A DNA stretch of 64,000 nt from the NCBI GenBank assembly GCA_015062485.1, contig SUUO01000003.1:28026-92025 (forward strand), written 5' to 3'. The notes under the pieces were generated by a model. It was not told where the DNA came from, made no database searches, and saw only the letters and a program-made list of their open reading frames with translations. Both the position numbers and the translations under genes were made by a program. The first letter of the stretch is position 1, and each line of letters begins with the position of its first letter. Shown here piece by piece: positions 2,613-57,389 of this stretch. The DNA is from Alphaproteobacteria bacterium. GTDB lineage: Bacteria > Pseudomonadota > Alphaproteobacteria > Rs-D84.

Positions 2613-3055
2613 ACAAAAACGTATCAAAAGTATTTATCGCGGCCGATCATCGTGGCGTTGGATTAAAATTATACTTGATTGAAATGTTGGCGGCGGCGGG
2701 CTATAACGTTGTAAATTTGGGCGTTGACGATCCAAACATATCCGCCGATTATCCAGACGTTGCCGCAACCCTGGCCGATGCAATGGAAAGCGATGAAAAA
2801 TCACGTGGCATCATTATTTGTGGCACGGGCGCGGGCATAATGATTGCGGCAAACCGTTACCGCCATATTCGTGCATCACGTTGTGAACGCCCAGACCAGG
2901 CGCGCGACGATCGTTTTCACGACGACACAAATGTTTTGGCATTGGCGGCCGATGACATTGACATTGAAATGGCGTTCTTGTGTGTTCAGGCATTTTTAGA
3001 AAGCCCATTTGATGCCGTCGAACGTCGCATCCGCCGAATTGAAAAAATATCTTAA
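2609..3055 (+). CDS. rpiB: ribose-5-phosphate isomerase B
   Basis: KVFIAADHRG..., IIICGTGAGIMIAANR, NVLALAA motifs. ATG 2609 overlaps the bactofilin stop (ATGA). Confidence 0.9.
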   Translation: MNKNVSKVFIAADHRGVGLKLYLIEMLAAAGYNVVNLGVDDPNISADYPDVAATLADAMESDEKSRGIIICGTGAGIMIAANRYRHIRASRCERPDQARDDRFHDDTNVLALAADDIDIEMAFLCVQAFLESPFDAVERRIRRIEKIS

Positions 3056-3082
3056 AAAATCCCGCATTATGCGGGATTTTTT
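3054..3082. terminator. bidirectional intrinsic terminator
   Basis: AAAAAAT-CCCGCA tta TGCGGG-ATTTTTT between convergent rpiB and 3082..3834. Confidence 0.85.
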
Positions 3083-3834
3083 CATTCGTTACACGGCGCG
3101 CTGTACAGATATGTACCAACGTCATCAGAATATACATTCCCCGCGCGCGAATAAAGCCAGCACGTCCCCAGGGCAGCATCACTTAGATGCGTTACTTCTT
3201 CGCACGCTGGCGCCGTCCTCAAACTCGTCCTACACGTTCCGTATGACGACGCGTCATAGTCCCTAAAAATCAAGCCCTGGCGTTCAATTGCAAGCCCACC
3301 AAGTCCAGACGGCGCCTCGTCTGGGAACATCTGGTCTTCTATGTCACTGCCACGATATGTCATCCATTTGTTCATTTCTGTAAAAAGATACACACCAAGA
3401 GTTTGCTTCTCTAATATGCTAGCTTTGCACGCATATGCGCAATTATACATACATGAATCCAAATCAGCGCTTGTATCCGCCCCCGTTTTTTCTGGAAACC
3501 ACTGTGTCGCATATGGGCGTATCATTTTACACCAACAATAATTACCCGTTTGTGTGGGCGCCGCAAGATGTTTTGCAAATGTACCCATACTTGTGAATCT
3601 CGTCGACGAACACGCTGAAATTATTCTGGCATCTGTAAGATATGTATTTACAGAACCAGCAACCGTGAAACTATGATGCGACGGCCAAATCAATTCTCCA
3701 ACTGTATAAGTGTCATTTGCCGTCCAACCAAATGCCGTACTCCCAAGAAAATCGGCCCCAATTGACACTTGGGTAATCGATGCCGCAAATGCGGGTTCTA
3801 ATACCAACATATATAATATAAATATTTTCTTCAT
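3082..3834 (-). CDS. secreted Cys-rich protein, fused L-domain + S-domain
   Basis: Signal peptide MKKIFILYMLVLEPAFA. L signature: NYCWCKM..QW..DSCMYNCAYAC. C-terminal S signature: CWLYSRAGNVYSDDVGTYLYSAPC. GGGGGG RBS. 10 Cys in the mature part. Confidence 0.85.
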   Translation of the reverse strand: MKKIFILYMLVLEPAFAASITQVSIGADFLGSTAFGWTANDTYTVGELIWPSHHSFTVAGSVNTYLTDARIISACSSTRFTSMGTFAKHLAAPTQTGNYCWCKMIRPYATQWFPEKTGADTSADLDSCMYNCAYACKASILEKQTLGVYLFTEMNKWMTYRGSDIEDQMFPDEAPSGLGGLAIERQGLIFRDYDASSYGTCRTSLRTAPACEEVTHLSDAALGTCWLYSRAGNVYSDDVGTYLYSAPCNE

Positions 3835-3854: not shown

Positions 3855-4331
3855 TTAAAACGCCTCAAACGCACCAAAAATCTTGCCACGAAAATCTGAT
3901 GATGTTACCATATAGCTTGCACAATTAAGCGCACAACTTGTCACACACTCCAACGCCGAAGTATAAACAGTAGTATTAGCCGGCAATCTAACATAACTAG
4001 ATAAAACTGGTTCGGTCATCTGGCACCAACAATACTTATGCACACCACCCATCGCGTTTTTCAATGGTCCCACCGACGGAGACCCCGAAGCCACCGTTGA
4101 ACAATGTCCATACATCATAACCGCAACATTTTCGCCCGTATAGGGCAGTGTGCATACCACCCCATGTTTATACGCGTATTGGCTAAAAGACGAATATGCA
4201 CTTGAATGCACACACGTTGTTTGCGACGCCAGATCTGCTCTGAACGGTGAACAAATATAAGACCGCGTTGGCGTGGCAGCATTCGCAGACAAAACGCCCC
4301 CAATTAAACAAAAACATAAAAATCTTTTCAT
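3855..4331 (-). CDS. secreted Cys-rich L-family protein
   Basis: RBS AGGAGAAAGGAAAATG. Signal peptide MKRFLCFCLIGGVLSANA. KYCWCQM ... ECVTSCALNC. 9 Cys. ORF 3855..4355 trimmed to the ATG at 4331. Confidence 0.85.
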   Translation of the reverse strand: MKRFLCFCLIGGVLSANAATPTRSYICSPFRADLASQTTCVHSSAYSSFSQYAYKHGVVCTLPYTGENVAVMMYGHCSTVASGSPSVGPLKNAMGGVHKYCWCQMTEPVLSSYVRLPANTTVYTSALECVTSCALNCASYMVTSSDFRGKIFGAFEAF

Positions 4332-4628
4332 TTTCCTTTCTCCTGTTGTTATCAATCCAACGCACCCGCGTCAGATAATCAAAAACCACCATTCATCAGG
4401 TGGTCAGGAGGTTGGAAACAATCATCGGAATTGTGTCGCTTATTCAATATATTCGCAACCCTCCTGACGACAAATATCAGGAGTTTAAATTTACCGTCCG
4501 CAAGACAGATATCCATTGCGAACGCCGATGCACGGGTTTCCACACCCCATTATGACAAAAACCGCCATAACAAGTATATTATAGCGAATTCTTTCAACTT
4601 AGGCAAATACTAAGATAAATAAAAATTA
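4332..4628 (-). promoter_or_regulatory. leader module copy 1 (promoter + conserved structured 5' leader, shortened variant)
   Basis: Read on - strand: -35 TTGCCT (4601-4606), 17-nt spacer, -10 TATAAT (4578-4583). A/T motif at 4613-4628. Key 7-mers 4413-4419 (tGGAAac) and 4536-4542 (gtTTCCa). Lacks the internal T1 hairpin. Confidence 0.75.
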
Positions 4629-4677
4629 TGTCCCGAAAAATAAAAAATTTTGTAAATAATCCACCCGGCGGGATTTT

Positions 4678-5592
4678 TTATTCGTCGCCTGCGCGCGGAT
4701 GGGCGTGCGCATATATATTTGAAATATCACTCATATTAACGCGTGTATAAACTTGGGTTGCCGCCAATGATGAATGCCCCAGTAATTCCTGTAAACTTCG
4801 TAAATCCGCACCACCGGCCAATAAAGCCGTCGCAAACGTATGGCGCAATGCGTGCGGTGTCACATAGTCCGGCAACTGTAAATAATTTCGCAGGTTTTCC
4901 ACAACCTTTTCCGCCATACGCGCCGACATCGGCAGGCCCCGCACACTGCGAAACGCAACCTCGTCCGGGACCTTTTCGAACGGGTGGGTCGCCATATATT
5001 TATCCATCGCATCCCAAACCGCCGGCAATACCGGGACCAGGCGTTCCTTGTTCCCTTTACCCACGATACGCAAAACATCGGGGCGGCCCATAACATCCCG
5101 ATTTCGCAGGTTCAAGGCCTCTGATATTCGCAGGCCACACCCAAACAATAACACCACCAACGCCCAATCACGCGCCGCAACCCACGGATTTTTTACATTT
5201 GTCGCACGAATCGCCCCGTGCATATCGGCAACATCCGACACGTTTATCGCCTTGGACAATTTGCGTGGCACCTTTGGCGAAGATACAAGGCCAATTGCAT
5301 CGTTTTTTATATCGTATTTTCGCCCCAAGAACTTGTAAAACCCACGCAACGAAGACAATGCCCGCGCCGTCGATTTATACGCCAGTCCGCGCCGCTGACG
5401 ATCCGCCAAATATGCGCGGAAACAAATCGTATCTGCGCGCGACAAATCCGCGACATCCGCATCCGCACCATTAAATTTGTTAAAAAATTTCAGGAAATCT
5501 AAAACATCCATTTCATACGCATCAATCGTATTCAACGAATACCCCTTGGTATCAGACAAATATTTTAAAAATTCCTGAATAACGTCTTGCAT
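4678..5592 (-). CDS. tyrosine recombinase XerC/XerD family
   Basis: N-terminal SAM-like domain (YLSDTKGYSLNTIDAYEMDV). Catalytic region GLRISEAL, HALRHTFAT, LLGHSSLAATQVYTRV. Confidence 0.9.
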   Translation of the reverse strand: MQDVIQEFLKYLSDTKGYSLNTIDAYEMDVLDFLKFFNKFNGADADVADLSRADTICFRAYLADRQRRGLAYKSTARALSSLRGFYKFLGRKYDIKNDAIGLVSSPKVPRKLSKAINVSDVADMHGAIRATNVKNPWVAARDWALVVLLFGCGLRISEALNLRNRDVMGRPDVLRIVGKGNKERLVPVLPAVWDAMDKYMATHPFEKVPDEVAFRSVRGLPMSARMAEKVVENLRNYLQLPDYVTPHALRHTFATALLAGGADLRSLQELLGHSSLAATQVYTRVNMSDISNIYAHAHPRAGDE

Positions 5593-6346: not shown

Positions 6347-7339
6347 TTATCCCAACATAGCCTTTTTAACACACGCCATTGTTTCGCGTGCAACCACACG
6401 TGCGCGCGCCGCACCCCGTGCCAAGATTTCTTCTATCTCGTCCGGATTTGCCATCAAGCGTTCGTATTCGTTGCGCGCCCCCGCAAGCGCAGAATTGATT
6501 TTTTCAAACAATATTGTTTTTGCCGTACCATATCCCATACCACCCGCACGGAACATTTCCGCAAATTCGGCGATTTCAGCATCCGTCGCAAAATGTTTGT
6601 AAAGTTGATATATGGTCGATGTATCCGGATCTTTGGATTCTTCGGGTGTCTTGGAATCCGTAATAATGCGCATAATTTTCTTTTTCAATTCCTTTTCCGG
6701 GGCAAACAATGCGATTGTGTTATCATAAGACTTGCTCATCTTTCGTCCGTCCAGACCCGGAATCAATCCCGTATCCGACCCGATTACTGGTTCTGGCAAC
6801 TTGAATATTTCGCCATATGTATTGTTGAAATATCCCGCAATATCACGTGCAAATTCAACGTGTTGTTTCTGATCGGCACCAACCGGCACAATATCAGAAT
6901 TATAAAGCAATATATCCGCCGTCATCAGAATAGGGTACGTATAAAGCCCCATATTAACCCCGGCATCTGTATCCAGGCCCGCGGCGATATTTTTATCCAT
7001 TGCCGCCTTGTACGAATGCGCACGGTTCATCAACCCCTTGGGCGTGACATTGGATAACAGCGTGTTTAATTGATAGATTTCATCAATATCCGATTGCCGA
7101 AACAGTACCGCGTTATCTAAATCCAGCCCCAATGCAATCATCAGCGCCGCAATTTCATAGGTATGCTGTTTAATTTGTGCCGCATCGTGAATAGAATTCA
7201 GCGCGTGCAAATCCGCAATAAACATAAACGTTTTATATTCACGTGCACGTTCAATCAGCGGCTTCAACGCACCGATATAGTTGCCCAAATGTGGCATTCC
7301 CGTGGGTTTAATACCCGTTAATACAATTTTATCTGACAT
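6347..7339 (-). CDS. trpS: tryptophan--tRNA ligase
   Basis: Class I motifs PTGMPHLGNY and KMSKS. 330 aa. Confidence 0.95.
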   Translation of the reverse strand: MSDKIVLTGIKPTGMPHLGNYIGALKPLIERAREYKTFMFIADLHALNSIHDAAQIKQHTYEIAALMIALGLDLDNAVLFRQSDIDEIYQLNTLLSNVTPKGLMNRAHSYKAAMDKNIAAGLDTDAGVNMGLYTYPILMTADILLYNSDIVPVGADQKQHVEFARDIAGYFNNTYGEIFKLPEPVIGSDTGLIPGLDGRKMSKSYDNTIALFAPEKELKKKIMRIITDSKTPEESKDPDTSTIYQLYKHFATDAEIAEFAEMFRAGGMGYGTAKTILFEKINSALAGARNEYERLMANPDEIEEILARGAARARVVARETMACVKKAMLG

Positions 7340-7574
7340 AATAATTACCTTTTCCTGTATTTGATTTTAATGAATTTGTTATTGAAATGAAAGCCCAAAA
7401 ATACGCGGGCAGGGTGTAAAAAATCCTTAGGCGGCAATGCGCCAACAAAAAGCACTTGAAAAGATAAATTTATTTGAACTCATACCAATCATTATAATGC
7501 ACAATTATAAAATTTGCAAGTTTTACAAAGATAACTATTTATAGTATCCACCACTAGCCACTTACACTAACCAC

Positions 7575-7604
7575 TAAAAAATCCCGCCAATGGCGGGATT
7601 TTTT
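7575..7604 (-). terminator. intrinsic terminator after leuS
   Basis: ATCCCGCC aat GGCGGGAT flanked by an A6 run and a T run. Abuts the leuS stop codon. Confidence 0.85.
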
Positions 7605-9999
7605 ACTTTTTCACAACAAAATTTACCAATTTCTTTGGGACAACAATTGTCTTGATAATCGTTGCGCCATCTAACTTGGCACCCAATGCACTTTTTGCCA
7701 TTTCAACCAATGCATCTTCGGCCACGTCCGCCGGCGCAACAAATTCCGCACCACGTTTACCGTTAACGGACGCAACAATTGTCATCTCGGTCTCAACCAG
7801 TTTCGCCGCATCAAACGTTGGCCAATCTGACAACGCCAGCATTTCATCGTGTCCCAATTTTTCCCACATTTCTTCGGTCAAATGTGGTGCAAATGGATTT
7901 AACACGCGAACCAGCGTTTCGTACGCCGCCCGCGGCATACCACCCGAAAAGGCATTGATATATTCCATCATCGCAGAAATCGCCGTATTAAATTTCATAT
8001 TTTCAACGCGCTCTGTCACATCTGCGATTAACTTGTGCATCAGGCGTTCCTGGGCCCCGGTCATTGGTACATCTGTCAAATTATCAGACATATTTTCCAC
8101 ACGTTTCAAGAAACGCTGAACCCCGGCCAGTGCACCATCGGTCCATACCGCGTTATTTTCCCACGGCCCCAGTGACAACACCGAAACACGCCCCGCATCG
8201 GCCCCAACAGAATCAACCAAATCCGCCACCATAAAACCATTCCCACGCGACTTGGACATTTTATAGCCATCATTTCCCATCAACAACCCCTGGGCGGTAC
8301 GCTTTGCATATGGCTCTGGCGTATTAACCAATCCCAAATCATACAATGCGTGATGCCAAAAGCGCGAATAAATCAAATGACGTGTGTTATGCTCGTGCCC
8401 ACCGTTATAGTGTGTAACCGGCATCCAATTTTCCATCTGCTGACGCGAACAAAATTCTTTATCATTCTTTGGATCCAGATACCGCAAATAATACCACGAC
8501 GAACCCGCCCATCCCGGCATAGTATCCGTTTCACGTTTTGCAGGCGCCCCACAGTGCGGACACGTTGTATTTACCCAATCGGTTGCACGCGCCAATGGCC
8601 CTTCGCCATCATCGGTTGGTTTATAGTCCACCATATATGGTTGCATAATCGGCAATTCAGATTCATCAACCGGTACCCAGCCACATTTTTCACAATAAAC
8701 CATTGGGATTGGTTCACCCCAATACATCTGGCGCGAAAAACCCCAGTCTTTTAATTTATATTTTGTTGTGCCACGTGCAAAGCCGTGTTCCGTACCGTAT
8801 TTAATCGCCGCGGCAATGGCTTCTTCTTTGCCCATACCGTCCAAGAAAGATGAATTTATATGCGCACCGTCGCCTTCCCAAACCTTGTCTGGTTCACCAC
8901 CGGCTAAAACCGGGATAATTTCCAGACCGAATTTTTTCGCAAAGTCCCAGTCACGACTATCGTGCGCCGGCACCGCCATAATTGTCCCATACGCATAATC
9001 AACCAATACATAGTCCGATGTGAACACCGGGATTTCTTTGCCGGTATATGGATTCAATGCCATTATACCCTCTAAACGCACACCCGTCTTTTCCTTGGTC
9101 GCGTCTGTCCGTTCAATCTCAGATTTTGCGGCAGATTCTTTGATATACGCACGTACCGCATCCGCGTTTTTAATTTTACCTTCGTCCAGCCATTTTGCCA
9201 ACAACTTGTGTTCCGGGGCAATTACACAGAACGTCACACCAAATATAGTATCTACACGCGTTGTATAAACCGTCATAACATCATCCCCAACACGGAAATC
9301 TACATCCGCGCCGTGCGATTTACCAATCAGGTTTACCTCATCTTTTTTAATACGTTCATCAAAATCAACATCTTTTAAGCCGTCTAATAATTTATCGGCA
9401 TACTTAGACAACGCCAAATTCCACTGAACCTTCATTTTCTTTTCGACCGGTCCGTGACAGCGTTCACAACAACCATCTTCTAACTCTTCATTGGTCAGGT
9501 TTGTTTTGCACGCCGGACACCAATTCATCGGCAGGGCAGATTTATACGCCAACCCCGCCTTGTAAAACTGAATAAACATCCATTGTGTCCATTTAACATA
9601 TTCCGGATCAGACGTTGCAACACGTGTTTCCGGACTGACCGACCAACCAACACGATCAATCATTTTTGAATATGCTTCTATCAATTCCTTTGCAACGTCT
9701 GCCGGATGGCGTCCAATCTTGGTGGCATAGTGTTCACCGGCAATCCCCATTGCATCAAAACCCATTGGGAACAAAACATCATATCCACGTGCACGACGAA
9801 ACCGGGCCAAGACATCGATTCCCGAATAATTCATCATATGTCCCGCGTGCATCCCGGCACCGGACAAGAACGGAAATTCCACTAACGTATAAAAACGAGG
9901 CTTCGAACCATCATCTTTCGGTACAAACGCGCGTGCATCGCGCCAGCGTTTTTGCCATTTTGCCTCACGTTCGTGAATTTTTTTGATATCATCTGCCAT
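7603..9999 (-). CDS. leuS: leucine--tRNA ligase
   Basis: GMHAGHMMNY (HIGH-type) and KMSKSRGN motifs, plus CP1 editing region. 798 aa. Confidence 0.95.
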   Translation of the reverse strand: MADDIKKIHEREAKWQKRWRDARAFVPKDDGSKPRFYTLVEFPFLSGAGMHAGHMMNYSGIDVLARFRRARGYDVLFPMGFDAMGIAGEHYATKIGRHPADVAKELIEAYSKMIDRVGWSVSPETRVATSDPEYVKWTQWMFIQFYKAGLAYKSALPMNWCPACKTNLTNEELEDGCCERCHGPVEKKMKVQWNLALSKYADKLLDGLKDVDFDERIKKDEVNLIGKSHGADVDFRVGDDVMTVYTTRVDTIFGVTFCVIAPEHKLLAKWLDEGKIKNADAVRAYIKESAAKSEIERTDATKEKTGVRLEGIMALNPYTGKEIPVFTSDYVLVDYAYGTIMAVPAHDSRDWDFAKKFGLEIIPVLAGGEPDKVWEGDGAHINSSFLDGMGKEEAIAAAIKYGTEHGFARGTTKYKLKDWGFSRQMYWGEPIPMVYCEKCGWVPVDESELPIMQPYMVDYKPTDDGEGPLARATDWVNTTCPHCGAPAKRETDTMPGWAGSSWYYLRYLDPKNDKEFCSRQQMENWMPVTHYNGGHEHNTRHLIYSRFWHHALYDLGLVNTPEPYAKRTAQGLLMGNDGYKMSKSRGNGFMVADLVDSVGADAGRVSVLSLGPWENNAVWTDGALAGVQRFLKRVENMSDNLTDVPMTGAQERLMHKLIADVTERVENMKFNTAISAMMEYINAFSGGMPRAAYETLVRVLNPFAPHLTEEMWEKLGHDEMLALSDWPTFDAAKLVETEMTIVASVNGKRGAEFVAPADVAEDALVEMAKSALGAKLDGATIIKTIVVPKKLVNFVVKK

Positions 10000-12297: not shown

Positions 12298-12759
12298 ATG
12301 AAAAAACTTTTAACTTTAACCGCGGTTGGTGCGTTACTTGCCACACCCGCGAATGCAGTCCAAAAATGCGTACAGTTGCCCACAAAAGGCTCAGAGTGTT
12401 CTTTTAGCAACAGCTCTTTCAGCATTGAAATACCCATAAGCTGCAGTGCTGCTGGGATATCTATGAAGGCTATAGCGTTGTGTGCTTCTGCTTATGCTGA
12501 CAAAGGAGGTACGGTATCAGCAGGCTTAGTCGCAAACACAATAGATGGGGAAACTATGTCTTATGGTCCCTACTATTGTTGGTGCAAACTTGTTCAGCCG
12601 GTTGAATCAAAGTGGGTATTGGCTTCTAGTACAAGCGACGACGATTTCAGTTCCTGTTCTTATTCATGCTCCCAAAAATGCGCCAAAGCGATGCGGGCCC
12701 CTAAAGATGTTGAACTTAATATCTGGCCAATAATGCTGGAAAATTTATTAGTTGATTAA
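12298..12759 (+). CDS. secreted Cys-rich L-family protein
   Basis: MKKLLTLTAVGALLATPANA signal peptide. YYCWCKLVQPVESKWVL ... SSCSYSCSQKC. 9 Cys in the mature part. Confidence 0.9.
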   Translation: MKKLLTLTAVGALLATPANAVQKCVQLPTKGSECSFSNSSFSIEIPISCSAAGISMKAIALCASAYADKGGTVSAGLVANTIDGETMSYGPYYCWCKLVQPVESKWVLASSTSDDDFSSCSYSCSQKCAKAMRAPKDVELNIWPIMLENLLVD

Positions 12760-12769
12760 GGTGGCGGAT

Positions 12770-13042
12770 ATGAAACGAATTATATTTTTATTGGTGTGTA
12801 TGCCAGGGTTGGCGCACGCCGCCGCCCCCAGTACCACCTGTCCATCTGGATACATCGCTATAAACGAACCTGCCATTACAATTGCAACCACGTGCCCCAG
12901 TGGCACAACCGCCATTGGCACGGCGGAATCGTGTTTGGAGTCCAGCCCATCTGGGGATTGTATAATGTACGCGCCGGCGGGCGTCAGTTACACCGACAGT
13001 CCCGGCACATATGAATTTACCGAACCGTGTGCGATGCAGTAA
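12770..13042 (+). CDS. secreted Cys-rich S-family protein
   Basis: RBS AAGGTGG. Signal peptide, then AAAPSTTCPSGYIAI ... CIMYAPAGVSYTDSPGTYEFTEPC. 5 Cys in the mature part. Confidence 0.9.
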   Translation: MKRIIFLLVCMPGLAHAAAPSTTCPSGYIAINEPAITIATTCPSGTTAIGTAESCLESSPSGDCIMYAPAGVSYTDSPGTYEFTEPCAMQ

Positions 13043-17252: not shown

Positions 17253-17576
17253 CTATGACGAAGATTCTTCCATTTCACAGGCCTCGGTAAATTCGTACGT
17301 GCCAGACGCATCCGTATAAGATACGCCCGCCGGCGCATACATAAAACAATTTCCCGCAGGATTCGCCACCAGGCACGACGAAACCGTCCCCGCACTAACA
17401 TACCCCGACGGACACGACGTATTTGCCAGGATAACATCCGGCTTGCTGATTGTGATATACCCGGTGGGACATTCCGTTGCCGGCGCGGCGGCATCAGTAT
17501 TATAAATCGGCACAAAATACGACATTATAAATAATAACGTCACCCGCCAATCCGCAAAAAATATTGATTTTTTCAT
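17253..17576 (-). CDS. secreted Cys-rich S-family protein
   Basis: AAAPATECPTGYITI ... CFMYAPAGVSYTDASGTYEFTEAC. 5 Cys in the mature part. Confidence 0.85.
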   Translation of the reverse strand: MKKSIFFADWRVTLLFIMSYFVPIYNTDAAAPATECPTGYITISKPDVILANTSCPSGYVSAGTVSSCLVANPAGNCFMYAPAGVSYTDASGTYEFTEACEMEESSS

Positions 17577-17598
17577 TGTTTGCTCTTTTTTATTGTAA

Positions 17599-18045
17599 TT
17601 AAATTGCATCAACTAAAATTTCATCCATCAAACTCTCCATTTCTAAACCACTAGCACAGCGTTGAGCGCAATATTTTGCACAGCTTAATGAATCGGTAAA
17701 TGTGTGATTTAGCATCCATTTTGATAAAAATGGCGTTAATACACGACACCAACATGCGGTTAAATTCACGCTTGTTGCATCAGCGCTAACAACAAACAAT
17801 TCTTCATCAGAAAGAACATCGAATCGTCCATACCCCTGGTCTTGGGCGCAAACTCCAATGCCTTTTACGGAGATTTCATTGGAGGTATCATAATTACACG
17901 TCGCTCTCCAACCTATTATTGAGTTTTCTCCACCCATACCAGAGCGACATTCAGTGCCAGCCGCCAATCCCACGCATTGCACCACCGCCATTGCGGGGAC
18001 GGTCAAAATTGCACCAACCGCGGTTAAAGTTAAAATTTTTTTCAT
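17599..18045 (-). CDS. secreted Cys-rich L-family protein
   Basis: RBS AAGGAG. MKKILTLTAVGAILTVPAMA signal peptide. ACWCRVLTPFLSKWML ... LSCAKYCAQRC. 9 Cys. ORF 17599..18162 trimmed. Confidence 0.9.
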   Translation of the reverse strand: MKKILTLTAVGAILTVPAMAVVQCVGLAAGTECRSGMGGENSIIGWRATCNYDTSNEISVKGIGVCAQDQGYGRFDVLSDEELFVVSADATSVNLTACWCRVLTPFLSKWMLNHTFTDSLSCAKYCAQRCASGLEMESLMDEILVDAI

Positions 18046-18379
18046 TGTCTTATCTCCTTTCTGCTTTAAAAAAAAACAAAACCACACGTAAAACGGGTGG
18101 TCAGGAGGTTCGAAACAATTATAAGGAATTGTGTGCTTATTTTGTGCGGACACACCGCCCATTATTCACAACCCTCCTGACCTTTTATAGCCAGGAGACA
18201 TTTCATCCAGGACCACAAACGAAAAAACACGCCATATGGCGCGCCCGGTTCGGATATTTCGTTTTGTTCCAGACGCCTTATATCGGGTTTCGACACCCCA
18301 TCACGACCATCGATCGTAACAAGCAAATTATAACCAAATATTTCATCCAACGCAAATACTTAGATAAATAAAAGTTTAT
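18046..18379 (-). promoter_or_regulatory. leader module copy 3
   Basis: Read on - strand: -35 TTGCGT (18350-18355), 17-nt spacer, -10 TATAAT (18327-18332). A/T motif 18362-18379. Key 7-mers 18110-18116 (tCGAAac) and 18287-18293 (gtTTCGa). Confidence 0.8.
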
Positions 18380-18556
18380 CGCAGGAAGTACAAACAGAAT
18401 TTTTTGCAAAAAAAATTCTGTCATCCCGTGGCTTGACCACGGGACCCAGGTCATATTTCCTTTTTATTTGCTTTCACCTGGATTCCGGGGTCAAGCCCCG
18501 GAATGACAAAAACGTAAAACGTTTTTGTTAAATAAACTTTTATTTTTATAAGTATT
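18362..18556. repeat. MITE-like palindromic element (copy M1) bounded by inverted AGATAAATAAAAGTTTA motifs
   Basis: Four consecutive hairpins: CAGAATTTTTTGCAAAAAAAATTCTG, CCCGTGG cttga CCACGGG, ATTCCGGGG tcaag CCCCGGAAT, ACAAAAACG taaaa CGTTTTTGT. Near-identical to 25658..25865 in reverse orientation. Confidence 0.8.
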
Positions 18557-24172: not shown

Positions 24173-24601
24173 ATGTTAAAAATTTGGACAGACGGATCGT
24201 GCCTGGGCAATCCGGGACCCGGCGGATGGGGATTTGTTGCAACCGACGGCAAAAACATTGCCGAACGCAGTGGCGGCGAAAAAGACACAACAAACAATCG
24301 AATGGAATTGATGGCGGTGATATGCGCCCTGACCGCGGCACGCCGACACGACGAATTGGAAATCCACACCGACAGTCAGTATGTAAAAAACGGAATATTA
24401 TCCTGGGTCAAAAATTGGAAGAAAAATAATTGGCGCACCGCCAATAAAAAACCGGTCAAGAACCAAGACCTGTGGATGAAATTGGATGAATTGGCATCGA
24501 CAAAAAAAATTCATTGGTTCTGGGTACGTGGCCACAATGGCGACGAAATGAACGAGCGTGTGGATGTACTTGCCCGCACCGCCGCCGAAAACCTGAAATA
24601 A
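24173..24601 (+). CDS. rnhA: ribonuclease HI
   Basis: TDGSCLGNPGPGGWG, NNRMEL, HTDSQYV, WVRGHNGDEMNERVD motifs. Confidence 0.95.
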   Translation: MLKIWTDGSCLGNPGPGGWGFVATDGKNIAERSGGEKDTTNNRMELMAVICALTAARRHDELEIHTDSQYVKNGILSWVKNWKKNNWRTANKKPVKNQDLWMKLDELASTKKIHWFWVRGHNGDEMNERVDVLARTAAENLK

Positions 24602-24630
24602 AATTCCCCGCCGAATGGCGGGGTTTTATT
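24600..24630. terminator. bidirectional intrinsic terminator
   Basis: CCCCGCC gaat GGCGGGG with flanking A/T runs, between rnhA and the S gene. Confidence 0.8.
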
Positions 24631-24901
24631 ATGACATTGGGCACGCATCGGTGTATTCGTATGTGCCACTGTCATCGGTATACGACATACCCGCCGGCGC
24701 ATACATTATACACGACCCCGCGGGACTGGATACCAAACACGATTCCGCCACGCCTACGGAAATTGTGCCACTGGGACAACTGGTCGCGATTGTAAGATAT
24801 TCTTCATCAATCGCGATATATCCCGCGGGACACGACGTTGACGGCGCGGCGGCACGCGCCACCATTGGCACAAAACAAAATAAAAACATCAATCGTTTCA
24901 T
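24629..24901 (-). CDS. secreted Cys-rich S-family protein
   Basis: RBS AAGGAGG overlapping the L-gene stop. AAAPSTSCPAGYIAI ... CIMYAPAGMSYTDDSGTYEYTDAC. 5 Cys in the mature part. Confidence 0.9.
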   Translation of the reverse strand: MKRLMFLFCFVPMVARAAAPSTSCPAGYIAIDEEYLTIATSCPSGTISVGVAESCLVSSPAGSCIMYAPAGMSYTDDSGTYEYTDACPMS

Positions 24902-24911
24902 TTGTGCCTCC

Positions 24912-25358
24912 TTAATCAGATAAATTCGTAAAAAAAGCGGTTCTGTATGCTTGATAGCTAGAATGAATCAAAGAATCATAACAATAAGACGCGCAAGTTC
25001 GCAGGCAAGAATCACGTGTAAGATCGTCGTCTGCTAACACCCATTTAGATACGGCTGGACTTACCATTTTGCACCAGCAATAATCATTAGAATATGAAGC
25101 ATCACTTGCAGCAGTATAAACAATAGTATCTTTTTGATCTTGAGTTTTGCCTAATGTATCTGCACACACTGCTATAAATTGAACAGGAATCTCTTCATTG
25201 TTAGTGCCATAACATGTTGCGGTTAAAGAAGAAGCATAATCAGCTGGTTCTGTTCCCGTACATGTTTTTGTTGCATCCAATGCCACACATTTTTGTACCG
25301 CCAACGCGGGTGCGGCAAGTAATGCACCAACCGCGGTTAATGTTAAAAGTTTTTTCAT
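24912..25358 (-). CDS. secreted Cys-rich L-family protein
   Basis: ATG 25358 with RBS AAGGAGA. MKKLLTLTAVGALLAAPALA signal peptide. DYCWCKMVSPAVSKWVL ... DSCLRTCASYC. 9 Cys. Confidence 0.9.
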   Translation of the reverse strand: MKKLLTLTAVGALLAAPALAVQKCVALDATKTCTGTEPADYASSLTATCYGTNNEEIPVQFIAVCADTLGKTQDQKDTIVYTAASDASYSNDYCWCKMVSPAVSKWVLADDDLTRDSCLRTCASYCYDSLIHSSYQAYRTAFFTNLSD

Positions 25359-25674
25359 TTTCAATCTCCTTTCTTTTGTTTTATTCGCGAAAAAACAAAA
25401 ACCACACGTTTTTCACGAGTGGTCAGGAGGTTGGAAACAATCAATACGAATTGTGCTGCTTATTCAATATATTCACAGCCCCCCTGACACTAAATGCTCA
25501 GGAGATATTTGTCATTTGGTTTTCACACGAAAAAACACGCCATCGGCGCGTCGGATTTCGTTTCCAAACGCGTATTGCACGGGTTTCCACACCCCATTAT
25601 GACCATCGATCATAACAAACAAATTATAACCAAATATTTCATCCAACGCAACGACGAAGATAAATAAAAGTTTA
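25359..25674 (-). promoter_or_regulatory. leader module copy 4
   Basis: Read on - strand: -35 TTGCGT (25646-25651), 17-nt spacer, -10 TATAAT (25623-25628). A/T motif 25658-25674. Key 7-mers 25432-25438 (tGGAAac) and 25583-25589 (gtTTCCa). Confidence 0.8.
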
Positions 25675-25865
25675 GTGGGGTAATCAGTTTACAAAAACGT
25701 TTAACGTTTTTGTCATTCCGGGGCTTGACCCCGGAATCTAGGTGAAAGCAAATAAAAAAAGAAATATGACCTGGGTCCCGTGGTCAAGCCACGGGATGAC
25801 AGAATTTTTTTGCAAAAAATTCTGTTCGTACTTCCTGCGATAAACTTTTATTTATATAAGTAATT
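25658..25865. repeat. MITE-like palindromic element (copy M2), inverted relative to M1
   Basis: Same four hairpins as 18362..18556 in reverse order. Bounded by AGATAAATAAAAGTTTA (25658-25674) and its inverted copy ATAAACTTTTATTTATATAAGTAATT (25840-25865). Confidence 0.8.
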
Positions 25866-25906
25866 ATGTATTCCTCCACTTACCACTAACCACTTACACT
25901 AATCAC

Positions 25907-25936
25907 TAAAAAATCCCGCCGAATGGCGGGATTTTT
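25907..25936 (-). terminator. intrinsic terminator after rlmE
   Basis: A6-TCCCGCC gaa TGGCGGGA-T6. Confidence 0.85.
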
Positions 25937-26595
25937 TATCCACGGAACCCCAGTGCAACAATAAACATTTCCACACTGTCCTTGCGTGACGATGGTGGTT
26001 TGATATGATGCACAGATTCAAATTTTTCTTTGATTTGTTTTAATAAGTCATTTGTTGTTCCACCGGTAAAGGACTTGCACACAAACGTGCCACCCGGCTT
26101 TAATGCACGTAACGCAAAATCAAACGCATATTCCAATAAAACCATCTGACGAATATGATCCGTCTTTTTATGTCCAACCGTATTCGGCGCCATATCAGAT
26201 ACAATAACATCAGCCGTACCATTACCGGTTTCATCGGGCGACAAGCCCAACTTTTCTTCCAGCCAGCGCAATGCCGCATCAGATGTAAAATCGCCCTGAT
26301 ATGTTTCCACACCAACGATTGGCGATATTTCCAACAAATCCATCGCAAAAACTTTCGATTTCGGATACGTACGCGCAATGTATTGCGACCAGGAACCCGG
26401 TGCCGCACCCAAATCAACAACAACCTGGCCATTGCGCAAGAATTTAAACTTCTCGTTCATTTCAATCAGTTTATATGCCGCACGTGCGCGATAGCCATCC
26501 TTTTGTGCACGTGCAACATATGGATCCGCCGCCTGGCGTTGCAGCCACGCGACCGATGATTTCTTTGCCGCAATTTTCTTATTTGTTATTTTCAT
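25936..26595 (-). CDS. rlmE: 23S rRNA (uridine2552-2'-O)-methyltransferase RlmE/FtsJ
   Basis: WLQRQAADPYV, VVDLGAAPGSWSQ, VSDMAPN motifs. TAATG overlap with the upstream gene. Confidence 0.92.
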   Translation of the reverse strand: MKITNKKIAAKKSSVAWLQRQAADPYVARAQKDGYRARAAYKLIEMNEKFKFLRNGQVVVDLGAAPGSWSQYIARTYPKSKVFAMDLLEISPIVGVETYQGDFTSDAALRWLEEKLGLSPDETGNGTADVIVSDMAPNTVGHKKTDHIRQMVLLEYAFDFALRALKPGGTFVCKSFTGGTTNDLLKQIKEKFESVHHIKPPSSRKDSVEMFIVALGFRG

Positions 26596-45085: not shown

Positions 45086-45631
45086 CTATTCTGTTGTTGT
45101 GGTTGAAGACGCTTCCTCTTCACCAGCGTAGGTCTTATAACTATTTTCTACGGGCGAAGATGTTGCGCCATCATAATAACAATTATCGGTAAAAATAAAT
45201 GTTCCCGTTTCATCAGAACGCTCAACATCTGCTTTCTTATAACATTCGTTTGCACTGACCGCACCTGTATCACTAGTATATTGAGCAGGGCAACTGGAAC
45301 AACTTCCGCCATTATTATACTGCCCACTATCACACGGCCGGCAAGAGTCGTGATACCATCTAAACAGATACCGTCCATTTGCCCAATATGATTGACATGT
45401 AGATTTTCTTAATTTTGTCGGATCATCTGGACAAAGACAATCGATATATCCGTTTGTACCCGTATAAAAATCTTCTGTCCTTGTTGCGCTAATGCAGTAT
45501 GAATCAGCATAAATTGCGGTGTCCCCTTCCCAACATCTAATTTTTACCGTCGTTGTTTCAAACGCGAAAGACTTTGAATATCCCAATGTCATCATCGCCG
45601 TAAAACCCGCCACGAAATAAGTTTTATTCAT
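45086..45631 (-). CDS. secreted Cys-rich protein with GCC2_GCC3/ephrin-receptor-like Cys repeat and S-type C-terminal motif
   Basis: Signal peptide. CRPCDSGQYNNGGSCSSCPAQYTSDTGAVSANEC. ...DETGTFIFTDNCYY. Acidic/Ser-Thr tail. Confidence 0.8.
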   Translation of the reverse strand: MNKTYFVAGFTAMMTLGYSKSFAFETTTVKIRCWEGDTAIYADSYCISATRTEDFYTGTNGYIDCLCPDDPTKLRKSTCQSYWANGRYLFRWYHDSCRPCDSGQYNNGGSCSSCPAQYTSDTGAVSANECYKKADVERSDETGTFIFTDNCYYDGATSSPVENSYKTYAGEEEASSTTTTE

Positions 45632-45934
45632 ATTTCAATCTCCTGTTTGTTAAAAACAAAACCACGCGTTTTTCACGAGTGGTCAGGAGGTTGGAAACAA
45701 TCAAGAAGTATTGTGCTGCTTATTCAATATATTCACAGCCCCCCTGACACTAAATGCTCAGGAGATATTTGTCATTTGGTTTTCACACGAAAAAACACGC
45801 CATTGGCGCGTCGGATTTCGTTTCCAAACGCTTCTTGCACGGGTTTCCACACCCCATTATGGCAAACCACCATAACAAGTATATTATAACTGAATGTTTT
45901 TCTTTGTTCAATACTTAGATAAATAAAAGTTTAT
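45632..45934 (-). promoter_or_regulatory. leader module copy 5
   Basis: Read on - strand: -35 TTGAAC (45906-45911), 17-nt spacer, -10 TATAAT (45883-45888). A/T motif 45917-45934. Key 7-mers 45692-45698 (tGGAAac) and 45843-45849 (gtTTCCa). Differs from copy 4 at only about ten positions over ~190 nt by eye. Confidence 0.8.
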
Positions 45935-45935
45935 G

Positions 45936-46030
45936 TTAGTGGTTAGTGTAAGTGATTAGTGATGGCACTATGATGTGCGGCATTTGCCACACACAAACAC
46001 TATCCACTAGCCACTCACACTAATCACTAA
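45936..46030. repeat. inverted pair of TTAGTG-type short-period repeats next to the rho terminator
   Basis: TTAGTGGTTAGTGTAAGTGATTAGTGATGG (45936-45965) versus CCACTAGCCACTCACACTAATCACTAA (46004-46030). The same tail occurs at 7548-7577, 25875-25908 and 49242-49270. Confidence 0.7.
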
Positions 46031-46057
46031 AAAATCCCGCGTAATGCGGGATTTTTA
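46029..46057 (-). terminator. intrinsic terminator after rho
   Basis: A6-TCCCGC gtaa TGCGGGA-T5. Confidence 0.85.
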
Positions 46058-47326
46058 TTACTGATTCATAGACGCAAAGAAATCATCATTCGTTTTCGTC
46101 ACACGTAATTTATCCAACAGGAATTCCATTGCCTCTAACGTGCCCATCGGATTAATTATGCGACGCAACACATATGTCTTGGCCAGTTGTTCTTTGCCCA
46201 CCAACAGGTCTTCCTTGCGTGTGCCGGACTTGGTAATATCAATCGCCGGATAAACACGTTTATCAGACAATTTTCTGTCCAAGATGATTTCACTGTTACC
46301 GGTACCCTTGAATTCTTCGAAAATAACTTCATCCATCTTGGACCCCGTATCAACCAATGCCGTCGCAATAATGGTCAGTGATCCACCGCCCTCGATATTA
46401 CGTGCCGCACCAAAGAAACGTTTTGGACGCTGCAACGCGTACGCATCAACACCACCGGTTAAAACCTTGCCACTGGATGGAACACAGGTATTATACGCGC
46501 GACCCAAACGTGTAATAGAATCCAACAAGATAACAACGTCTTGTCCGGCCTCTACCAAACGTTTTGCTTTTTCAATAACCATTTCTGCGACCTGAATATG
46601 ACGTGCCGCCGGTTCATCAAATGTCGAAGAAATAACCTCTCCCTTGACACTGCGTTGCATATCGGTCACCTCTTCGGGACGTTCATCAATCAGCAAAACG
46701 ATTAACTTAACATCCGGATAGTTTGTCGCAATAGAATGCGCAATATTTTGCAGCATAACCGTCTTACCGGTACGTGGCGGTGCAACGATTAACGAACGCT
46801 GTCCCTTACCCGTTGGGGAAATCAGGTCAATAACACGCGCAGACAGATTACGTCCTTTGTCTGTGTCGGTTGGGACCTCCATCTGTAACTTCTCGTCCGG
46901 GTACAGTGGCGTCATATCATCAAACGACACACGATGTTTCAGTTTTTCAGGATTGTCGCCATTAACGCGTTCAATCGTTTCCAACGCGAAATAGCGTTCG
47001 GTTTCCGCCGCCGGGGCTTGAATTTGCCCCTCGACATAATCACCGGTTTTCAAGCCGTATTTTTTAATTAAATTTGGCGACACATACAAATCATCCGGCC
47101 CCGCCAGATAGTTTGATTCCGGCGCACGCAAGAAACCAAATCCATCCTGCATCCGTTCCAGAACACCATCACCAATCAACGTCACCTTTTTATCCGCGGC
47201 GAACACACGCATAACCGCAAAACGCAGTTGCTGTACATTCAGTTGCGCTGGATTTTCAATTCCCATATCTTCTGCCATTTTCAGCAGTTGCTGGGGCGAT
47301 TTCGCCTTTAACTCATTAATATGCAT
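46058..47326 (-). CDS. rho: transcription termination factor Rho
   Basis: N-terminal RNA-binding domain, Walker A APPRTGKT, and the RecA-like ATPase. 422 aa. Confidence 0.97.
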
Positions 47327-47957: not shown

Positions 47958-47987
47958 CAAAAAAATCCCCCATTTGGGGGATTTTTT
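47958..47987. terminator. bidirectional intrinsic terminator
   Basis: A8-ATCCCCC attt GGGGGAT-T6 between ssb and 47986..48912. Confidence 0.85.
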
Positions 47988-48912
47988 AATCAATAGTGTA
48001 ATGACACATTCCACCGCCCGATATATATGTACCATATTCATCTTTAAATGTACCAGATTCCCCACCGCCAACATCAACATAACAATCGGTTGGATTTATT
48101 GCACCGGGTGCACTGGTCGCATTTTCCGGCGAAACATCGTGATCACCCGGTAATGCATTGCACGCCATATTACCACCAGAAACAGTCATCGTTTCCACAT
48201 CCACCCTAACTTTGATTCCACCTGGGCAATAATCACCAGGTACACATTGCTCTTCCAATAGTTCCCCCGTATTCGTATCAATAGTTACATAATATCCAGA
48301 ATTAGAATATCCATAACAATCGCTTATCTCTGTGCGCGCACCATCAGAATGTATCAAAATTGGATGAAGCTCGTCGCACGGCACCACAATCCCATACATA
48401 TAAATATAACCATCTGGCAGACCTCCTGAAAAATCTGCACAAACATTCAATGCTTCGTCCATTGTTTCAAACCACATTCCGTTTTCAAATTCATCCTCTG
48501 TCGCGGGGATCCGTACAAGCACATAACCTTCATTACATTCCCCCATTGCTCTAAAACCAATAATCTGGCCATTAGTATCAAAATACGTAACAACATAATA
48601 GTTTCCTTTCTCGTCATAAAAATAACGAGACAAAGTAAGATCTTGACACTGTTCCAAACTTGTTAGCCCATTATTCACAAAGACATCACACGCGAATTGC
48701 CCATAATCAACATCACAAGAATCTTGATATTGCGTATTATCCTCGGGACACGGCTTGCATTCTGTTGCATCAGGCACATCATTATACGTATGTCCCGGAC
48801 ACGGCTCACACACACCAGACGACGTAACATAATAACCAACACCACATATTTCGGCATATCCTGGTGCGGTAAAAGCAAATAATAATAAAACCGTAAAACA
48901 AATCTTTTTCAT
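47986..48912 (-). CDS. secreted Cys-rich protein with ephrin-receptor-like Cys repeats and S-type C-terminal motif
   Basis: Signal peptide MKKICFTVLLLFAFTAPGYA. CGVGYYVTSSGVCEPCPGHTYNDVPDATECKPCPEDN. C-terminal GTFKDEYGTYISGGGMCHY. Confidence 0.8.
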   Translation of the reverse strand: MKKICFTVLLLFAFTAPGYAEICGVGYYVTSSGVCEPCPGHTYNDVPDATECKPCPEDNTQYQDSCDVDYGQFACDVFVNNGLTSLEQCQDLTLSRYFYDEKGNYYVVTYFDTNGQIIGFRAMGECNEGYVLVRIPATEDEFENGMWFETMDEALNVCADFSGGLPDGYIYMYGIVVPCDELHPILIHSDGARTEISDCYGYSNSGYYVTIDTNTGELLEEQCVPGDYCPGGIKVRVDVETMTVSGGNMACNALPGDHDVSPENATSAPGAINPTDCYVDVGGGESGTFKDEYGTYISGGGMCHYTID

Positions 48913-49226
48913 TTTTGTCTTTCTCCTGTTTGTTATAAAAAACAAAACCACCGCGCATAAACGAAGTGGTCAGGAGGTTCAGAACAATCAAGAAGAATTG
49001 TGTGCTTATTCAATATATTCGCAACCCTCCTGACACCTATGTGTTCAGGAGTTTTTATTTATCGTTTGGAAAGTACACGAAAAAACACGCCACCGGCGTG
49101 CCGGATTTCGATTCCAAACGCTTCTTGCACGGGTTCTGACACCCCATTATGGCAAAACCACCATAACATACTAATTATAACCGATTGTTTCCATTTGCGC
49201 AAATACTTATAGAAATAAAAGTTTAT
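48913..49226 (-). promoter_or_regulatory. leader module copy 6
   Basis: Read on - strand: -35 TTGCGC (49197-49202), 17-nt spacer, -10 TATAAT (49174-49179). A/T motif 49209-49226. Key 7-mers 48979-48985 (tCAGAac) and 49133-49139 (gtTCTGa). T1 hairpin CACGCC ggt GGCGTG + U6 at 49080-49100. Confidence 0.8.
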
Positions 49227-49268
49227 CCTAGTGCTTCTACTCTACACTAACCACTTACACTAATCACT

Positions 49269-49298
49269 AAAAAACCCGCCGGATGGCGGGATTTTTTT
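49269..49298 (-). terminator. intrinsic terminator after autotransporter gene
   Basis: CCCGCC ggat GGCGGG with flanking A5/T7 runs. Confidence 0.85.
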
Positions 49299-56316: not shown

Positions 56317-56586
56317 TTAGGTCAGCGGACACGATGCGGTATATTCATACGTTCCTTTTTCGTCTGTAAAACTCATACCGGCGGGAACATACATCCAACA
56401 CCCATTTGTCGCATTGGTCAAACACGATGTTAGTGTACCGGTCGAAACATAGCCAGCAGAACAGGCATCCGATAAAATAAAATCAGAACGCGTAACCGCG
56501 ACATACCCCGACGGACACGATGTCGACGGCGCCGCAGCGTATGCACACATAGGTATAAACGCAATTATAATTGCTATTTTTTTCAT
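56317..56586 (-). CDS. secreted Cys-rich S-family protein
   Basis: ATG 56586 with RBS AGGGGTG. AAAPSTSCPSGYVAV ... CWMYVPAGMSFTDEKGTYEYTASC. 5 Cys in the mature part. Confidence 0.88.
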   Translation of the reverse strand: MKKIAIIIAFIPMCAYAAAPSTSCPSGYVAVTRSDFILSDACSAGYVSTGTLTSCLTNATNGCWMYVPAGMSFTDEKGTYEYTASCPLT

Positions 56587-56596
56587 CACAACACCC

Positions 56597-57037
56597 CTAA
56601 TACGATAATAAGTTATCTAACATATACACTAAACCATATTGCGCATAATCTGCACTAGTACCGGCTAATCCTTCAAAATCCACACAACGAAAGGCACAAT
56701 TTCCGCTACAATATTGCCCATAATTCCACCCCGTAAACACCCATTTAGACACTGCCGGAGTCAGCAAACGACACCAACAATACCCAACAGGGTTATCACC
56801 GTCATCTTGTTGCAAATTTTCTGCCGTCTCTCCTGTATAATCACCCCCTTGTTTCGAACAAAAATAAGTACCGCGATACGTATCTGTACCACACTTTATG
56901 GTCCAATCAGAATCGTTATAGTCCGTTCCCCCGCTACAACTAGTTTGATTTGTAACATTTTTTACGCATTGGGTTGCGGCATTCGCAGACGCGGCCATTA
57001 TTGCACCGACCGCGGTTAATGTTAAAAGTTTTTTCAT
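56597..57037 (-). CDS. secreted Cys-rich L-family protein
   Basis: RBS AAGGAG. MKKLLTLTAVGAIMAASANA signal peptide. GYCWCRLLTPAVSKWVF ... QYCSGNCAFRC. 9 Cys. ORF 56597..57088 trimmed. Confidence 0.9.
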   Translation of the reverse strand: MKKLLTLTAVGAIMAASANAATQCVKNVTNQTSCSGGTDYNDSDWTIKCGTDTYRGTYFCSKQGGDYTGETAENLQQDDGDNPVGYCWCRLLTPAVSKWVFTGWNYGQYCSGNCAFRCVDFEGLAGTSADYAQYGLVYMLDNLLSY

Positions 57038-57356: not shown

Positions 57357-57389
57357 CTAAGTGATTAATAGTATCCGACACTCACCACT

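Follow-up and report, generated by a model that had tools for sequence, protein, structure and literature searches.

A natural L–S fusion protein in an uncultured gut alphaproteobacterium of the order Rs-D84

Here, we analyze an open reading frame (ORF) of 250 amino acids (aa) on the minus strand of a 64-kb window, that is, the whole 64,000-nucleotide (nt) stretch of contig SUUO01000003.1 under study. The host is an uncultured gut bacterium of the Candidatus Enterousia group, order Rs-D84. We demonstrate that the two halves of the ORF, which spans positions 3082-3834, are significantly homologous to two unnamed protein families, L and S, whose members are elsewhere encoded by adjacent genes, and that gene order, recurrence of the fusion and co-variation of cysteines link both families. 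Taken as a whole, the evidence is best explained if the gene encodes, as one chain, an exported and disulfide-rich protein that otherwise consists of two subunits, and we consider this probable. A preliminary description of the window had presented the ORF as a natural L–S fusion with 10 Cys, an even number, in the mature protein. This was borne out, and the parts of the gene are laid out as follows.

3082-3834, minus strand: fusion gene, made up of signal peptide, L module, linker and S module, with its stop codon at 3082-3084
3784-3834, minus strand: predicted Sec signal peptide (aa 1-17, MKKIFILYMLVLEPAFA) with an AxA-type cleavage site, read from the sequence
3364-3783, minus strand: L module (aa 18-157), placed by hidden Markov model (HMM) match, alignments A4 and A7 and an AlphaFold2 (AF2) model
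3316-3363, minus strand: linker (aa 158-173, MTYRGSDIEDQMFPDE), 16 hydrophilic and acidic residues, with an AF2 predicted local distance difference test (pLDDT) below 50 from aa 166
3085-3315, minus strand: S module (aa 174-250), lacking a signal peptide of its own and ending in CWLYSRAGNVYSDDVGTYLYSAPCNE

The L family was defined from 65 cassette genes and the S family from 54, taken from 45 other genome loci and the window, and the profiles were built without the fusion. An HMM of the four canonical L proteins of the window matched the fusion at aa 63-149 (39.7 bits, E 9e-12 among 369 window ORFs), and an HMM of the four window S proteins matched it at aa 179-249 (27.7 bits, E 5e-8). With the complete families, the match to the 65 L proteins extended over aa 56-155 (55.5 bits, model positions 63-153 of 155), upholding the L-type N-terminal half proposed earlier, and the match to the 54 S proteins over aa 200-249 (27.9 bits, envelope 171-250). 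The L-half score of 57.0 bits compares with a maximum of 12.5 bits in 2000 shuffles. In profile–profile comparison with hhalign, the N-terminal halves of a subfamily of related fusions, described below, aligned with the L family at a probability of 99.5% (P 6e-23).

The S half required more scrutiny, as a Cys-rich, low-complexity motif at the C-terminus might resemble S by chance without being homologous to it. The significant S match of the single sequence covers only the C-terminal half of S (model positions 46-90), and scores can be inflated by Cys-rich sequence. However, none of 2000 composition-preserving shuffles of the S half exceeded 9.2 bits, compared with 31.4 bits observed. The C-terminal halves of the subfamily aligned by hhalign with the S family over 74 columns, the entire mature S (97.5%, P 8.8e-12), and cross-controls of each half against the wrong family were negative. 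In addition, the CPxGY/IERxG region and four Cys positions align between fusion and S. Shuffling and hhalign together refute chance resemblance, which we give practically no credence. The C-terminal match, on which the preliminary description had made its case depend, is thus significant, and the fusion claim stands because both halves match their family profiles significantly. The S-type module is present at the end of the protein as proposed, but it is more than a terminal motif, since the similarity spans the whole of mature S (aa 174-250). An alignment computed with MAFFT from full-length S rows placed these on the L half because of their signal peptides, and mature S rows were used instead.

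At the residue level, the fusion carries the L core signature, C4 ... [YF]C[WYF]C[KR]xxxP..S.W ... Cx3Cx3C followed by an amphipathic tail, as well as the S C-terminal signature C[IWF]xYxxxGxxY[ST]DxxGTYx[FY][ST]xxC with S-C3 to S-C5, to which C211, C225 and C248 align. Its 10 Cys all lie in the mature part (aa 75, 100, 102, 128, 132, 136, 201, 211, 225, 248). In the L module, C75 corresponds to C4, C100-W-C102 to C5/C6 and C128-x3-C132-x3-C136 to C7-C9, and V23 stands at the L-C1 position. The first ~38 mature residues (aa 18-55) are a degenerate, Cys-free form of the L N-terminal subdomain; the subdomain with C1 (xxKC[VI]), C2 and C3 as found in L is not present. The L tail helix is kept (TLGVYLFTEMNKW, to be compared with L tails such as GLVYMLDNLLSY). 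In the S module, C201, C211, C225 and C248 are S-C2 to S-C5. The S N-terminal half (CPxGY, a hydrophobic strand, CPSG) gave no HMM match for the window fusion alone; it aligns as APSGLGGLAIERQGLIF...GTC, where A174 stands at the C1 position and C201 is C2, and the module opens with APSG, aligned to CPSGY at the start of mature S.

The predicted cleavage point of the fusion is MKKIFILYMLVLEPAFA|AS, and its signal peptide aligns with those of L proteins. What makes ORF 3082-3834 a fusion is the missing S signal peptide and the missing separate S gene: the acidic 16-aa linker, which carries the subfamily 'GSDII' motif, stands where a two-gene cassette has the last part of L with its stop codon, the spacer between the genes and the signal peptide of S. 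Neither the sequence nor the alignments revealed an internal hydrophobic remnant of a signal peptide in the fusion, which is an evolved protein and not a recent read-through.

The fusion is not alone. When 1.84 billion representatives were searched exhaustively with phmmer, 20 proteins matched, eight of which are near full-length relatives of 243-275 aa (P0003, P0004, P0005, P0006, P0009, P0013, P0014 and P0015; E 4e-22 to 3e-4). A ninth, P0022, was added by a later search; it was not scored against the S profile and owes its placement to 68% identity to P0015. A word-indexed protein search with the fusion, A4 and A7 as queries returned 1, 2 and 6 proteins, respectively, and the subfamily emerged only with phmmer; scans of metagenome contigs with A9 and with the fusion found no relative. 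All nine members match the L profile N-terminally, and all those scored match the S profile C-terminally, P0005 weakly (E 0.0075). The window fusion is 20-33% identical to the other members and shares their length of 243-275 aa, the 'GSDII'-type linker, IERxGxxF and the ...CNE end. In a neighbor-joining tree it grouped with P0003/P0004/P0013 in 188 of 200 bootstraps, and P0015/P0022 formed a separate clade. That the fusion belongs to an old family of such proteins had escaped the preliminary description.

Fusions of other designs were also found. P0019 (219 aa), an L-to-S fusion of canonical type, retains all 9+5 Cys and has another linker. In an uncultured proteobacterium (A86_L4 bin.28), L044:4401-5042 encodes a reverse-order S-to-L fusion of 213 aa with 5+9 Cys, in which an S with signal peptide is joined straight to the mature L N-terminus (...DCPLD|PVTKC...); a separate L gene (4001-4384) precedes it. 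In every type (the subfamily, P0019 and L044) the internal signal peptide has been removed. Judged from these sequences, fusion has arisen independently at least twice, in both orders, and P0019 may be a third independent case.

The direction of the event can be questioned. If the single chain were ancestral, L/S gene pairs would have arisen by fission, with S gaining a signal peptide afterwards. The fusion subfamily is indeed old and internally divergent (15-34% identity between lineages), and its proteins hold complete L and S modules. However, two-gene cassettes, of which two metagenome-assembled genomes (MAGs) have at least 9 each, are far commoner and more widespread, P0019 and L044 indicate that fusion events happen, and the fused proteins look derived, with C2/C3 lost and the C1 pair lost in two lineages. 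We regard fission as decidedly improbable; a functional link between L and S is implied whichever direction was taken.

The strongest residue-level information comes from the cysteines. Mature canonical L proteins hold nine conserved Cys and mature S proteins five, both odd numbers. L-C1 was present in all 65 L proteins, and all five S Cys in the 54 S proteins, save for ORFs cut at contig ends. C2 and C3 are jointly absent from 12 of the 65 L proteins, and C4 and C7 from 7, two of which also lack C2 and C3. Their loss in pairs implies C2-C3 and C4-C7 disulfides. The remaining Cys would then be C5/C6 of the CWC motif, bonded to C8/C9 (CxxxC), and C1, for which L itself would offer no partner. 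C2/C3 are absent from the whole fusion subfamily, of which seven members hold 12 Cys (7+5). The window protein and P0015/P0022 hold 10, and exactly L-C1 and S-C1 are missing. The window protein has V23 for L-C1 (SITQV vs SVTQC) and A174 for S-C1 (APSG vs CPxG). Since the window protein groups with the 12-Cys P0003/P0004/P0013, and P0015/P0022 are separate, the paired loss occurred twice independently. This suggests an inter-subunit disulfide between L-C1 and S-C1 that would be indispensable in separate chains and dispensable once these are linked.

The Rosetta-stone, or domain-fusion, concept for inferring interacting partners reportedly goes back to Marcotte et al. and Enright et al. in 1999. 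It applies here in that the components are separate elsewhere and the fusion is homologous to both over non-overlapping regions. As in other such cases, separately encoded proteins, in this instance products of adjacent genes of the same genome, are joined in one polypeptide, and such joining is seen again in further lineages, with either component first. Unlike the metabolic enzymes known from Rosetta-stone cases, the partners appear to be exported and disulfide-rich, and an internal signal peptide had to go; unlike the classical cases, the fusions show a matched Cys loss in each half. The preliminary description had proposed that a fusion of adjacent-gene proteins is evidence of joint action. 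The proposal is supported at the level of sequence, and it is strengthened by four independent lines: adjacency, recurrent fusion, Cys parity and correlated loss.

Adjacency is best seen in the canonical cassettes. Five cassettes lie in the window, namely the unit containing the fusion and four canonical two-gene cassettes:

12298-13042, plus strand: canonical cassette, with L at 12298-12759 and S at 12752-13042
17253-18045, minus strand: canonical cassette, with L at 17599-18045 and S at 17253-17612
24629-25358, minus strand: canonical cassette, with L at 24912-25358 and S at 24629-24901
56317-57037, minus strand: canonical cassette, with L at 56597-57037 and S at 56317-56589

A pattern scan derived from the four canonical L proteins over 185,579 species genomes yielded the 45 loci, nearly all from uncultured gut Alphaproteobacteria or Candidatus Enterousia. 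Two MAGs hold at least 9 cassettes each. In these loci from other genomes, S lies immediately downstream of L for 52 of 62 L genes, with gaps mostly below 40 nt, and most L genes without an adjacent S are the first L of L-L-S triplets. An origin of the L1-plus-fusion module from particular L-L-S triplets was considered and dropped, as BLAST revealed no special affinity.

Some variants deserve mention. 'Long S' proteins (L004:4418-4897, L006:4458-4964, L011:4453-4941, L014:4320-4928 and L007:4791-5300) carry an extra 8-Cys N-terminal domain (ANGxxCLxxxQCxSGVC...PCxxGLxC) before S, and their Cys total is still odd (13). On the minus strand of the window, 62744-63721 encodes a secreted protein of 325 aa and 27 Cys with an L-like C-terminal pattern (YYCWC...Cx3Cx3C) and, upstream of it, an S-like 'DTSGTYRHAGVC'; its HMM scores are non-significant. 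Two other Cys-rich secreted proteins of the minus strand have an S-like end ('GTFIFTDNC'; 45086-45631, with sub-threshold Ephrin_rec_like and tumor necrosis factor receptor (TNFR) matches) and an S-like start ('FTCGPGY'; 58098-58643), respectively.

The fusion is the second gene of a two-gene operon. As the preliminary description had it, it stands behind leader copy 1 and after a solo L gene at 3855-4331. The order is a promoter-like site, a leader of ~250 nt, the L1 gene, 20 nt with the ribosome-binding site (RBS) GGGGGGA, the fusion ATG at 3834 and a terminator:

4332-4640, minus strand: leader copy 1, with a promoter-like TTGCCT-17-TATAAT at 4606-4578 and, just 5' of the L1 RBS, a hairpin followed by a T-run at 4405-4384
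3855-4331, minus strand: L1-type solo L gene, first gene of the operon, encoding 158 aa with 9 Cys in the mature protein and a 'CSPF' motif
3054-3082, no strand assigned: terminator hairpin (AAAAAATCCCGCATAATGCGGGATTTTTT) between the convergent rpiB and fusion genes, bounding a strain-variable insert

An L1-type gene lies directly upstream of the fusion gene in all four readable loci, and these genes have 'CSPF' near the N-terminus and YC[WF]C[QR]xxEP...YV in common:

3855-4331 of the window, minus strand: L1-type gene
3448-3999 of L052: L1-type gene
2-505 of L053: L1-type gene
2-244 of L054: L1-type gene

Because an L1-type gene precedes the fusion wherever upstream DNA is available, the conserved unit is L1 plus the L::S fusion. 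The upstream 'solo L' is a conserved, dedicated partner type, a point that had been overlooked before.

A leader of ~250 nt with promoter-like hexamers and hairpins lies upstream of every minus-strand cassette, the copies in the window being at approximately 4393-4640, 18090-18389, 25392-25685, 45652-45934, 48959-49236 and 57088-57366. It is also found 5' of Cys-rich genes outside the L and S families (45086-45631 and 47986-48951). No leader copy was found for the plus-strand cassette at 12259, and comparison of the leader with Rfam matched no family.

Put together, these data allow a working scheme. We infer export, disulfide pairing, physical L–S contact and function from sequence comparisons, and the scheme is conditional in all these respects. 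Canonical L, with ~130 aa and 9 Cys in its mature form, and S, with ~70 aa and 5 Cys, would each be exported by their own Sec signal peptide and would fold oxidatively outside the cytoplasm. Within L, disulfides would form between C2 and C3, between C4 and C7, and between the CWC pair and C8/C9, giving a cystine-stabilized helix and strand. L and S would then dock and be clasped near their N-termini by the L-C1 to S-C1 disulfide. In the fusion, the 16-residue acidic linker would take the place of the last part of L, the intergenic spacer and the signal peptide of S, so that one signal peptide could export both modules at 1:1 stoichiometry. With the chains joined by the backbone, the clasp disulfide would become dispensable, and both of its Cys could be replaced (V23, A174), leaving 6+4 Cys for five intradomain disulfides. 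The fusion would be co-transcribed with, and probably act together with, the dedicated L1-type subunit from the upstream gene. As the weakest step of the scheme, the protein could serve a bacterium that depends on a host or partner, and whose genome is below 1 Mb, as a variable module for binding or attachment outside the cytoplasm.

The AF2 model of the fusion agrees with part of this scheme. The L core (aa 71-140) was modeled at a pLDDT of about 76-90, with the CWC motif in a predicted strand (98-106), the Cx3Cx3C motif in a predicted helix (125-142) and a further helix at 144-160; with 9 sequences the model was poor (pLDDT 47.5). A Foldseek search of the AF2 model against the PDB returned no match (best E 0.9, template modeling score at most 0.15), and sequence-profile searches of the PDB gave nothing significant. 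Searches of Pfam and NCBIfam with the fusion, L, S and the subfamily produced sub-threshold matches only (DUF2671, Furin-like_2, cEGF, CC). In the literature we found nothing on the L/S family, the relevant material being genome descriptions of Candidatus Enterousia.

In the cysteine-stabilized alpha-beta motif of defensins and scorpion toxins, the CxxxC of a helix is bonded to the CxC of a strand. The L core resembles it in that C-W-C is predicted to lie in a strand and Cx3Cx3C in a helix, and the co-losses in L would leave exactly a CxC and a CxxxC to pair. It differs in that the order is reversed in L (CxC before CxxxC), the module is ~130 aa long and there are extra disulfides. Neither in sequence nor in fold did the fusion match a defensin or toxin. 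Of all Pfam families, only DUF2671 (PF10877), a group of functionally uncharacterized proteins from Rickettsia, gave any match to the fusion, at aa 120-145, where the Cx3Cx3C helix lies. Its score of 15 bits (E 0.024) compares with a gathering threshold of 23.2, and one of the nine subfamily members matches. Membership in DUF2671 was rejected on these two grounds. The S N-terminal half (CPxGY...C, CPSGT) resembles short motifs of EGF-like, cEGF, CC-domain and ephrin-receptor/TNFR-like repeats, with sub-threshold matches to cEGF in 19 of 44 S proteins and to the CC-domain in 17 of 44. The cEGF, CC, ephrin-receptor and TNFR-like matches are all below the Pfam gathering scores, and the fusion itself has none. 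We know of no counterpart to the S C-terminal signature C[IW]MYxPAGxxYTDxxGTYxFTxxC.

The L module also occurs in larger proteins. In P0012 (4750 aa), five L modules are combined with six Listeria-Bacteroides repeats and, at the C-terminus, an Endonuclease I domain, and P0008 and P0011 have two L modules each. Listeria-Bacteroides repeats are typical of cell-surface proteins. The architecture of P0012 would fit an extracytoplasmic role for L modules.

How is the gene maintained? The identical fusion protein was read on 22 contigs from independent samples, and the index lists it in 25 blocks of the collection. A diverged allele (L048, 5290-6042) is 96% identical and keeps the frame and all 10 Cys. 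Between P0022 and P0015 the ratio of nonsynonymous to synonymous substitution rates (dN/dS, omega) is 0.42 at a dS of 0.66, which indicates constrained yet fast evolution. Between the window and L048 fusions there are 10 nonsynonymous and 2 synonymous changes (omega ~1.4, dS 0.012), compared with a dS of 0.05-0.22 (4-18 times that of the fusion) and an omega of at most 0.06 for the flanking housekeeping genes. The low dS of the fusion hints at a recent lateral exchange of the cassette between strains, and the counts, which are small numbers, fit such an exchange combined with diversifying or relaxed selection.

Two related genomes, L049 and L050, lack the 1.58-kb unit of leader, L1 and fusion between rpiB and xerC. 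On either side, the unit is flanked by a copy of a repeated terminator hairpin. Gain and loss of the cassette by recombination between hairpins is possible. The hairpin family (…CACTAAAAAATCCCGC..GCGGGATTTTTT) is found in the window at 3042-3085, 7564-7607, 24588-24631, 25896-25939, 46017-46060, 49257-49300 and 57378-57421, and in L048 at 5262-5290 and about 6860-6885. Between rpiB and the cassette or xerC there is also a strain-variable gene (L048:4805-5260, L050:4807-5262, L049:4809-5228). Its product has 151 aa in L048 and L050, the product in L049 is an unrelated one of 139 aa, and the window lacks the gene.

These data also bear on the quality of the gene. A read-through, a frameshift, an assembly chimera of an L–S cassette or a neutrally drifting pseudogene could be suspected from the omega of ~1.4 between two close strains, from the disappearance of two otherwise conserved Cys and from the absence of the whole cassette in L049 and L050. 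Against this stand the identical ORF on 22 contigs of independent samples, the diverged allele with frame and Cys intact, the lack of a hydrophobic internal signal-peptide remnant, homologous fusions of the same architecture in other organisms, the omega of 0.42 in the sister 10-Cys lineage, and the presence of an RBS and a terminator of its own. A decaying or artefactual gene is thus largely refuted, and we hold it to be very improbable.

A more serious alternative is domain shuffling without a complex, in which L and S would be promiscuous extracellular Cys-rich modules and the fusion would reflect co-regulation or co-localization. It draws on several observations that weigh against an L–S complex, as do the other points gathered here. 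L occurs alone or repeated, without S, in P0008, P0011 and P0012, like loose beads on a string; S can carry an unrelated 8-Cys N-terminal domain (the 'long S' of L004, L006, L011, L014 and L007); and an S-like C-terminal motif is seen in the window protein at 45086-45631. The AF2 model of the fusion from the 27-row alignment A8 is moderate (pLDDT 62.9, predicted template modeling score 0.59; S part 53-75, linker below 50). As to the cysteines, one canonical L lacks C4 and C9 instead of C4 and C7, and the correlated loss in fusions rests on two events only. The L1-type proteins of the window, L052 and L053 have 9 Cys, an odd number, and those of the window and L052 partner a fusion without a free Cys; L-L-S triplets likewise sum to an odd number. 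A motif scan found no Dsb-type CxxC oxidoreductase in the 64-kb window, a result that is uninformative for the rest of the genome. Finally, relaxed constraint could account for the omega of ~1.4 that separates the fusions of the window and L048.

The occurrence of L/S fusions in both orders could also be taken as a sign of shuffling. However, free shuffling sits poorly with the tight adjacency of the genes (52/62), with the odd Cys number of both partners, with L-C1 and S-C1 being never lost in separate chains and jointly lost twice in fusions, and with the clean removal of internal signal peptides in all fusions. We consider domain shuffling unlikely, if the most deserving of attention among the alternatives, and retain the single-chain version of a two-subunit exported protein as the explanation of the gene.

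Multigene families of variable Cys-rich or secreted surface proteins are known from host-dependent microbes, for example the variant-specific surface proteins (VSPs) of Giardia and the variable surface proteins of mycoplasmas. L/S proteins are like them in that the Cys framework is conserved and the loops are variable, and in that cassettes are present or absent between strains, dN/dS is elevated and a 5' leader is shared. Divergent paralogues are also numerous for genomes of such small size, with 9 or more cassettes in MAGs of less than about 1 Mb (PMC12306168). L/S proteins differ in lacking homology to these families and in forming a two-gene, heterodimer-like unit. The host group has genomes below 1 Mb and lacks the TCA (tricarboxylic acid) cycle, respiration and most biosynthesis (PMC12306168); presumably it depends on other cells. 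We propose, by inference only, that L/S and its single-chain form may serve as variable exported binding modules. A bolder idea is that an obligate L–S heterodimer with an N-terminal disulfide clasp is the unit of an undescribed multi-copy, leader-controlled, strain-variable exported system of Rs-D84 for attaching to or exploiting a host or partner cell. We put this forward tentatively, as a possibility that may well prove wrong. If it were true, the single-chain forms would show that a peptide linker can replace the clasp, and they would offer a ready-made design for expressing and solving the complex.

A Rosetta-stone fusion is in itself a familiar kind of evidence. In the present case, the fusion, its relatives and the co-variation of Cys turn 'two adjacent hypothetical genes' into a testable model, namely a 1:1 exported complex with a defined L-C1 to S-C1 interchain disulfide and a defined map of intrachain disulfides. 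As constructs to express, to solve structurally and to screen for binding, the natural single-chain proteins are an obvious choice, and they therefore represent a practical entry point to the L/S system. L/S cassettes fill a sizeable share of very small genomes, yet match nothing in Pfam, NCBIfam or the PDB, and among the surface or secreted interaction systems of these uncultured, widespread gut symbionts or parasites they may be the principal one.

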